64,000 bases of DNA from an uncultured Chlamydiae bacterium (GTDB lineage: Bacteria; Chlamydiota; Chlamydiia; Chlamydiales; JAJFMB01). Under the pieces are notes generated by a model, which had not been told where the DNA came from, searched no databases, and saw only the letters and a list, made by a program, of their open reading frames with translations. A program made the position numbers and the translations under genes. The stretch lies in NCBI GenBank assembly GCA_963696295.1, contig CAVOJR010000001.1:64001-128000 (forward strand). Direction: 5' to 3'. Positions within the stretch are counted from its first letter, which is position 1; each line of letters starts with the position of its first letter. This document shows, one piece after another, positions 18,104 through 18,960 of this stretch.

Positions 18104-18532
18104 ATGCTTTTTTTATATCCTAATAGCAACTATTCGAATACGCTTCACACAATAATGCGGGAAATGCCCAAAGAGAAAAGTATAAATCTTTTCTCTATAT
18201 TTGCCCGTAATCCTGCCGGCTTTGCATTGGAACAATACCCAAACAGTCAAAGAGGGATTTCTCATCTTCTTAATACAAACCCAACTTTGACATCAGTTCC
18301 CCGGGCTGCATTCCATCAAACAGCTTGCAATCGCAATACAACAGAATTTCCAGGCAATAATACTCCCTCCCCATTCGATTGGAGAGCATGTTTTAAACAT
18401 TTCAAGACCAATTTCAAAGCCACCCTCCCCGGAGTGGCCATCGGCGGGCTTATCGGCGGAATGGTTGCAGGTTTTCTAGGCGGCATAGAAGATGAAAAAA
18501 ATGAAAAAACTCCACCTCAGAAGAAACACTAA
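18104..18532 (+). CDS. Small protein with a polar N-terminus and one C-terminal Gly-rich transmembrane helix
   Basis: GGAG RBS; PRAAFHQTA motif; TM LPGVAIGGLIGGMVAGFLGG. Confidence 0.65.
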   Translation: MLFLYPNSNYSNTLHTIMREMPKEKSINLFSIFARNPAGFALEQYPNSQRGISHLLNTNPTLTSVPRAAFHQTACNRNTTEFPGNNTPSPFDWRACFKHFKTNFKATLPGVAIGGLIGGMVAGFLGGIEDEKNEKTPPQKKH

Positions 18533-18591
18533 TTATCAGAGAGATGATTTATCGCATTGACTTGCAATTATTTATATTGAATAGGATAAAT

Positions 18592-18960
18592 ATGATTAAT
18601 TTAATAAGGAATTCGGGAATATCAAAGATTGTAACGACCCCAAATACAGCCTCTTTATCAAAGGTCGCCCCTGACTCCACAAGGCTTAAAACAATTCCGG
18701 CGGTCTCCCCTTTTTTTAATAAGTTCTCAGGACAGACAAGAAACGTGCCCTACCGGTCATTTTCTACATCAATCATACCCCGAGCCGAACAGGATCCCAC
18801 GACCTCTCGAACCGGGTCTTTTTTCAAAGTCTTCACAAAAGAATACGGTCGACAACTCCTGCTAAATGCTCCAGCATTTTTAGCTTATGGAATGCTAGTT
18901 TATCTATTTGGCGATAATAAGGCTCCCTCTGAAAAACCCTCTCAAAAACCGGCAAATTAA
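18592..18960 (+). CDS. Small protein with a mitochondrial-presequence-like N-terminus and one C-terminal transmembrane helix
   Basis: AGGA RBS before ATG 18592; S/T/R/K-rich, nearly acid-free N-terminus ending YRSFSTS; TM LLLNAPAFLAYGMLVYLFG. Confidence 0.65.
   Translation: MINLIRNSGISKIVTTPNTASLSKVAPDSTRLKTIPAVSPFFNKFSGQTRNVPYRSFSTSIIPRAEQDPTTSRTGSFFKVFTKEYGRQLLLNAPAFLAYGMLVYLFGDNKAPSEKPSQKPAN

Follow-up and report, generated by a model that had tools for sequence, protein, structure and literature searches.

To our knowledge, cleavable mitochondrial presequences have been recognised in bacterial proteins only as single cases. Ats-1 of Anaplasma phagocytophilum is reported as a type IV secretion substrate with demonstrated import and anti-apoptotic activity (PMC2824752), and in Chlamydia trachomatis 5 of 22 predicted candidates are recorded as having reached mitochondria (bioRxiv 10.1101/2022.08.30.505961). 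LncP of Legionella is described as a bacterial membrane protein that is delivered to the host inner membrane (PMC3252375).

Here we consider two adjacent small genes, ORF1 and ORF2, in a window of 64,000 nucleotides (the whole stretch of DNA that was analysed; positions given without a contig prefix refer to it). The first-pass annotation had read both products as a mitochondrial presequence followed by a membrane anchor. On the evidence of sequence we lean towards this view, that is, towards secreted mini-proteins which would be imported into host mitochondria, cleaved there and anchored in the inner membrane. We hold it to be probable for ORF2, and a little short of even for ORF1.

The locus and its source organism

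The window lies within a 3.30-Mb contig (C1) of 47% GC; a second contig (C2) measures 135 kb. The nearest relatives of the neighbouring tRNA-modification protein MtaB are 59-71% identical and almost all carry the labels Chlamydiae, Parachlamydiaceae or Waddliaceae (of 126 loci, 80 were kept); in the two other genomes of its family the identity is only 66-71%. The genome contains type III secretion genes (matches to PF00771, PF01514 and PF00813), four genes for TLC-type nucleotide (ATP/ADP) translocases and a gene for TatC. These features place the source among the environmental chlamydiae, in a lineage that has been sampled sparsely, and mark it as intracellular and host-dependent. The PF01514 and PF00813 matches are free of stops, and the PF00771 (type III export) gene is split over three reading frames in the assembly. 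Since this gene and another, which we take from its motifs to be gyrase-B-like, each lie in several reading frames (C1:256120-258152; L126:6381-8186), indel or assembly errors are likely.

ORF1 (18104..18532, + strand; 142 aa) and ORF2 (18592..18960, +; 122 aa) stand downstream of a USP-type deubiquitinase gene (16602..17885, +; PF00443, E 9e-29). Together they fill a 1.1-kb segment of 41.6% GC, which sequence comparison finds bracketed by two copies, in direct repeat, of the 115 bp that end the deubiquitinase gene. The first copy (17771..17885, +) comprises the last codons and the stop of that gene, and the second (18985..19096, +), 94% identical to it with one in-frame 3-bp gap, has no start codon of its own. 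The arrangement suggests an insertion, or else a local duplication, at the 3' end of the deubiquitinase gene. An assembly artefact is excluded by contigs from two runs in two different studies, which span 18310-18460 and 18332-18573 with zero differences, although one of these runs may be the source sample.

Both genes are preceded by a ribosome-binding site, GGGAGA for ORF1 (18092..18097, +) and AGGA for ORF2 (18583..18586, +). The latter, together with the matching N-terminus of a homolog (P0013, below), supports the ORF2 start at 18592; public callers start at the upstream ATG at 18544, and the Logan contigs record a 138-aa form of ORF2 as well as a 122-aa form of ORF1 from a later start. 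Codon use is atypical, with a GC3 of 0.36-0.37 in ORF1 and ORF2 as against 0.65 in the deubiquitinase gene, and the hexamer coding score is negative for both ORFs. Promoter and terminator scans at the locus gave results at chance level only.

The first-pass annotation had set the two genes beside the deubiquitinase in a way that implied a link, which comparison across the genome does not support. Other members of the ORF2 family adjoin unrelated genes, and none was found beside the three further USP-type deubiquitinase paralogs (C2:32862-35039 and C2:65095-66729, both on the 135-kb contig, and C1:2181898-2183586). For these reasons the neighbourhood looks incidental, and the deubiquitinase is probably a neighbour and not a partner of ORF1 and ORF2. 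No relative of it was found in the genome contigs searched. Elsewhere in the surroundings are a protein of 1294 aa that weakly matches PXA (12582-16466, -) and, at 20085-21248 (-), 25257-26219 (-) and 27489-29930 (+), a protein kinase and two orphans. The large orphan or eukaryote-like genes around the locus likely encode more secreted proteins.

A family of single-helix mini-proteins

Single-sequence homolog searches with ORF1 and ORF2 returned only the queries themselves; ORF2 has no Pfam or NCBIfam match, and neither protein matches Pfam at E 10. The search for paralogs that the first-pass annotation had called for was productive, yielding ORF2 paralogs at C1:842654, where 1 of 2000 shuffles scores as high, and at C1:1889540 (E 0.04). 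A four-sequence profile was then run against 1.84 billion proteins. Of its seven matches, four were the input sequences; the other three, P0012, P0013 and P0014, were new proteins found on Logan contigs, and score E 3e-11 to 9e-5 in a database of that size. P0013 is an intact ortholog, 50% identical to ORF2 with a leader 31 residues shorter, whilst P0014 resembles the C1:842654 paralog and has a leader of 16 residues, and P0012 resembles the C1:1889540 paralog. When a seven-sequence profile was put to a word-indexed database, the four proteins returned were all already known. In leave-out HMM tests ORF2 scores E 2.8e-4 and ranks 2 of the 2876 called proteins of our own gene set, a crude call from which, as from these rankings, the C1:1889540 paralog is absent. 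We conclude that the members are real orphan genes, lineage-specific and dispersed in the genome.

Beyond these proteins, ORF2 compared with 401 genomes of the phylum gave eight weak matches outside its own genome (E 1e-4 to 9e-3; five with internal stops), which were taken as noise, and a C-terminal family profile gave nine weak matches in 400 scored chlamydial genomes, the best two of which were inspected and rejected. Metagenome contigs yielded no family loci, and the family profile had no meaningful match in the PDB. In the literature covered, outside which most subscription papers fall, we found no description of the ORF2 family, nor of presequence-bearing proteins in environmental chlamydiae.

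ORF1 and ORF2 might instead be spurious, or in decay, within a low-GC segment of recent acquisition, which would be in keeping with the negative hexamer scores, the low GC3 and the bounding duplication. This is highly improbable given the ribosome-binding sites, the intact ORF2 ortholog at 50% identity and the diverged but intact paralogs.

The family members are 83-142 aa in length, each with a single helix. Aligning the seven defines a common C-terminal module composed of a basic segment, the helix and a charged Lys/Pro tail. The module begins in ORF2 with the basic segment (18820..18855, +), and continues with the helix assigned by hydropathy (residues 89-107; 18856..18912, +; mean KD 1.65), which has a Pro in its first third and is followed by an Asp and a Lys/Pro/Ser tail, the tail being 15 residues long. 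A single helix with a charged C-flank is common to 7/7 members. The front halves are unalignable save for one common feature, R-x-[FILY]-[SHG], which is placed 33-41 residues ahead of the helix in 6/7 members, whilst the length of the leader before the Arg varies from 16 to 75 residues. Against the genome background, the same spacing of motif and helix occurs in 11 of 250 comparable proteins, two of them family members (9/248 without those), for a pattern and distance window that were widened after the family had been seen. The motif of P0014 was not selected for, since it lies outside the search-matched stretch 36-82. The textbook form R-x-[FLY]-[SA] fits 2/7 members, only ORF2 and its ortholog P0013, and the leaders of the C1:842654 paralog and of P0012 each contain four acidic residues.

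The place of ORF1 in this family is less firm. Pairwise, ORF1 and ORF2 have no significant similarity (E 0.92; 1492 of 2000 shuffles do at least as well), and the leave-out E values of ORF1, 0.11-0.29, are within noise, an unrelated protein scoring E 0.012-0.23; in one test ORF1 fell outside the top 7. Its layout is nonetheless the one that had been described. QRGISH (residues 49-54; 18248..18265, +) lies 60 residues ahead of the helix, and PRAAFHQTA (residues 66-74; 18299..18325, +) aligns with the family motif, its Arg one place upstream, so that ORF1 carries RAAFH at the aligned place and the cleavage pattern is not fitted there. The Gly-rich helix identified by hydropathy (residues 110-128; 18431..18487, +) is followed by an acidic stretch and then a Lys/Pro tail. 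The N-terminus is less clean, as had been remarked, with three acidic residues and a net charge of +3 in the first 68 residues, borderline values for a presequence. ORF1 may thus be called a probable distant member of the family, in which both membership and motif are weak.

A single helix preceded by a basic segment, in a genome that encodes TatC, might also belong to the bacterium's own small inner-membrane proteins, with the basic N-terminus kept cytoplasmic by the positive-inside rule, or to Tat substrates. We judge this quite unlikely. Tat substrates have a twin Arg close to the hydrophobic region, whereas ORF1 and ORF2 have no RR, a twin Arg coincides with the motif in 1/7 members (in P0012 RR is found elsewhere) and 33-41 residues separate the motif from the hydrophobic stretch, the ORF2 helix lying 34 residues past the Arg. 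The family is, moreover, fast-evolving, lineage-specific and scattered among unrelated genes.

Leaders, candidate processing motifs and the import reading

The leader of ORF2 (residues 1-56; 18592..18759, +) is by composition a candidate secretion signal plus presequence. It contains one acidic residue, four Arg, four Lys, 14 Ser/Thr and five prolines, Lys thus being as frequent as Arg, and its net charge is +7 over the first 56 to 60 residues. The first-pass annotation had described a start of ~60 residues with a single acidic residue that ends in RNVPYRSFSTS, and the counts and positions agree: one acidic residue in the first 60, and the motif at residues 50-60. It had also placed one helix and a short charged tail after this stretch; both are present, with the refinement that ~28 residues, including the basic segment, separate motif and helix. 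The RSFSTS element (R55-S60; 18754..18771, +) is a candidate processing-peptidase site, with the predicted cut after S56. It fits the R-3 and R-10 cleavage patterns as coded here, a coding which uses the residue preferences flanking such sites. Processing-peptidase cleavage sites are described as defined by an Arg at -2, -3 or -10 (PMC7723863).

Cleavable presequences are typically 20-60 aa long, poor in acidic residues and of net positive charge, and form a positively charged amphipathic helix. How unusual such a leader is can be gauged from the called proteins of at least 60 aa. At most one acidic residue in the first 56 is found in 130/2854 of them, and a net charge of at least +7 as well in 21/2854, a class which the ORF2 leader matches. 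Behind an acid-poor basic leader, R-x-[FLY]-S-[ST] occurs in 6 of 2861 proteins, ORF2 included, compared with 2.0 on average and at most 5 in 60 shuffles, this strict pattern having been modelled on ORF2. The textbook R-x-[FLY]-[SA] (R-3) is not enriched genome-wide, with 32 observed and 37 expected from shuffles. The maximum hydrophobic moment, calculated on a simple scale and not by a trained predictor, is 0.58 for ORF2 and 0.65 for ORF1, where the genome median is 0.56 and the 75th percentile 0.64. Against import stand the ordinary moment, the five prolines and the parity of Lys and Arg in the ORF2 leader, the fit of the textbook motif to 2/7 members and its lack of genome-wide enrichment, the four acidic residues in the leaders of the C1:842654 paralog and of P0012, the arrival of only 5 of 22 predicted candidates at mitochondria in C. 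trachomatis, and the likeness in composition between presequences and secretion signals.

The last of these leads to a different destination. Type III signals are described as enriched in Ser, Thr and Pro and depleted in acidic residues (PMC2669295). By composition the first 25 residues of ORF2, with 11/25 Ser, Thr, Pro or Asn and no acidic residue, match such a signal, the corresponding counts for ORF1 being 10/25 and two acidic, and 31 of 196 secretion-signal-like N-termini of this genome have at most one acidic residue in 55. The two proteins could then be non-classical, Inc-like membrane proteins, secreted by the type III system into the inclusion membrane or some other membrane of the host, in which the leader is a secretion signal plus flexible linker, and the Arg motif a binding motif or a coincidence. 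The weak amphipathicity of the leader is in accord with this, and for Chlamydia-related bacteria inclusion proteins that lack the bilobed domain are presumed (PMC6925127). We regard this reading as improbable. R-x-[FLIY]-[SHG]-[ST] is found in only 4/196 of the secretion-signal-like N-termini, ORF2 being one of the four. The survival of the motif behind leaders of 16-75 residues would be left unexplained, as would the internal motif of the J-domain/ankyrin protein described below. The chlamydial Inc proteins are characterised by a bilobed hydrophobic domain (PMC6925127), which is absent from all seven members, each having one helix.

The language-model neighbours of ORF2 are all eukaryotic (ORF1 has no hit). 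The three best, at 0.87-0.88, are unnamed Streptophyta proteins, and those named include NDUFB11, SDH7 and NDUFC1 at 0.82-0.83, values below 0.9 which serve as a lead only. The Streptophyta neighbours would suit organelle targeting of a different kind, either plastid import, were the host an alga or plant, or an uncleaved anchor in the outer membrane. Outer-membrane tail anchors have basic flanks, whereas acidic residues follow the helix in most family members, and the named neighbours are mitochondrial inner-membrane subunits. Transit peptides are, like presequences, Ser-rich and acid-poor (PMC7723863). Taking both sides into account, we consider targeting of this kind very unlikely.

The reading as presequence plus membrane anchor is thus upheld in part. 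It gains for ORF2 from the spacing of the motif, kept in spite of the differing leader lengths, from the type III and carrier genes of the genome and from a second family that has similar leaders and an internal site; it is weak for ORF1, and the moment of ORF2 is ordinary. Were import to occur, the Ser/Thr/Pro/Asn-rich start would serve as the type III secretion signal, and in the host cytosol the leader would act as a presequence for TOM/TIM23. The processing peptidase would cut two residues after the Arg, leaving ORF2 with ~66 residues, and the helix would stop transfer, so that the basic segment would face the matrix and the tail would project into the intermembrane space. Proline within a membrane helix is described as disfavouring stop-transfer arrest (PMC2171449), and the one inside the ORF2 helix could alternatively route the protein through the matrix. 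The 66 residues would be too few for an enzyme; the most plausible job for the mature peptide would be to bind and tune an inner-membrane complex or carrier of the host, much as small accessory subunits do in respiratory complexes. That it thereby adjusts the output of ATP or metabolites for an energy parasite is possible at best, and is the most speculative step of the scheme.

Similar leaders, carriers and known systems

Similar leaders occur elsewhere in the genome. A J-domain/ankyrin protein of 623 aa (C1:2994588-2996459, -; L126:3589-5460), whose family is independent of that of ORF2, is represented by homologs in 5 of the 300 further chlamydial genomes searched (loci L129-L133; 6/301 with its own genome included). 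In 5/6 of these, R-x-[LVMF]-[ST] stands just ahead of the conserved core with 0-1 acidic residues before the motif, the starts of the leaders having been chosen by eye. All three homologs that have ankyrins (3/3) contain R-x-[FY]-S-[ST] between the J and ankyrin domains. As this site is internal, a secretion signal alone cannot account for it. Processing peptidase is described as splitting mitochondrial polyproteins at internal sites (PMC8734313), and the J-domain/ankyrin protein is a candidate polyprotein that might be cut by the host peptidase in this way.

A second paralog pair, of 77 aa and 39% identical (C1:946995-947228, +, locus L100; C1:2024482-2024715, -, locus L101), carries short leaders that terminate in QQRVFSS and QQRGFST, each followed by a hydrophobic stretch; no homologs of this family were found in 400 genomes. 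A 575-aa protein (C1:401910-403637, -; L125:3911-5638) has a basic leader of 50 residues ending in ARNFHATP, then a hydrophobic stretch, and weakly matches a FabG-type reductase profile (E 0.003).

A compact mitochondrial carrier is also part of the gene complement (PF00153, E 1.9e-14; C1:548701-549435, +; L109:1462-2196). This carrier family is matched in 36/200 scored chlamydial genomes (loci L144-L173), some with several matches, compared with 0/14 controls. Two paralogous carrier-like proteins (C1:841343-842569, +, locus L099; C1:2315036-2316022, +, locus L138) rank second and third of 2876 on a chlamydial carrier-repeat profile (E 0.003 and 0.014; reversed controls >500), for which reason they are probably degenerate carriers. 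One paralog lies directly upstream of the C1:842654 family member, and the next match of the family profile in the genome is the C-terminus of the 328-aa carrier-like protein (E 0.0086). Between the module and the two carrier-like C-termini, leave-out E values run from 1e-4 to 0.18 and hhalign gives a probability of 39-55%. The family module may have been copied from the last helix of the carrier-like proteins. We keep this origin as a lead, because the module finds no match in the last helix of true carriers. Derivation from canonical carriers was rejected, as family members and carrier-like proteins alike score E >=17 against a profile built from 30 chlamydial carrier C-termini, and a profile-profile comparison of the module with PF00153 carriers gives E 0.27. 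For the carrier-like protein, 250 genomes and the metagenome contigs yielded no homologs, and neither the true carrier (BLASTP) nor the PDB gave a match; its single-sequence structure model (pLDDT 35.6) is too poor to use.

A wider scheme, which we offer as doubtful, would join these observations. Environmental chlamydiae might run an imported mitochondrial sub-proteome in their hosts, made up of their own carriers, of presequence-bearing mini-proteins from at least two families and of a J-domain/ankyrin polyprotein split internally by the host peptidase. The ORF2 family would then be the copied last helix of a degenerate carrier-like gene to which a new presequence had been added, giving a modulator with one helix that acts on carriers of the host or the bacterium.

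If the import reading holds, ORF2 and ORF1 would work like Ats-1, a protein whose import is experimentally documented (PMC2824752); for the family here import is a prediction drawn from sequence, and no sequence link to Ats-1 has emerged for these chlamydial single-helix proteins of 83-142 aa. C. trachomatis CT132, CT529, CT618, CT642 and CT647 are likewise chlamydial proteins with N-terminal mitochondrial signals, and several are membrane proteins. According to the same source CT529, CT618 and CT642 are of the bilobed Inc type, unlike the family here, and the available text of that study does not feature a single-helix mini-protein family with a conserved processing motif (bioRxiv 10.1101/2022.08.30.505961). 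With LncP there is the parallel of a bacterial membrane protein in the host inner membrane, and the present genome also encodes a carrier; LncP-type carriers, however, are described as using TIM22 and as having six helices and no presequence (PMC3252375), whereas the family here has a leader and one helix. The mini-proteins belong to none of the Ats-1, C. trachomatis signal-bearing or LncP families. Were import true, they would offer a simple way into the question of how host mitochondria are tapped for energy by environmental chlamydiae. They would also supply a sequence rule by which such proteins could be picked out among the many orphans of protist symbionts, namely an acid-poor leader of variable length that ends in an Arg motif, with a fixed distance between motif and conserved core. 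In layout they are like NDUFB11/ESSS (PF10183), SDH7 (PF27931) and NDUFC1 (PF15088), with which they share no sequence homology but the same order of leader, short matrix segment, helix and tail. A bacterial family here appears to copy the entire design of a small inner-membrane subunit, in a genome that holds further candidates and carriers.
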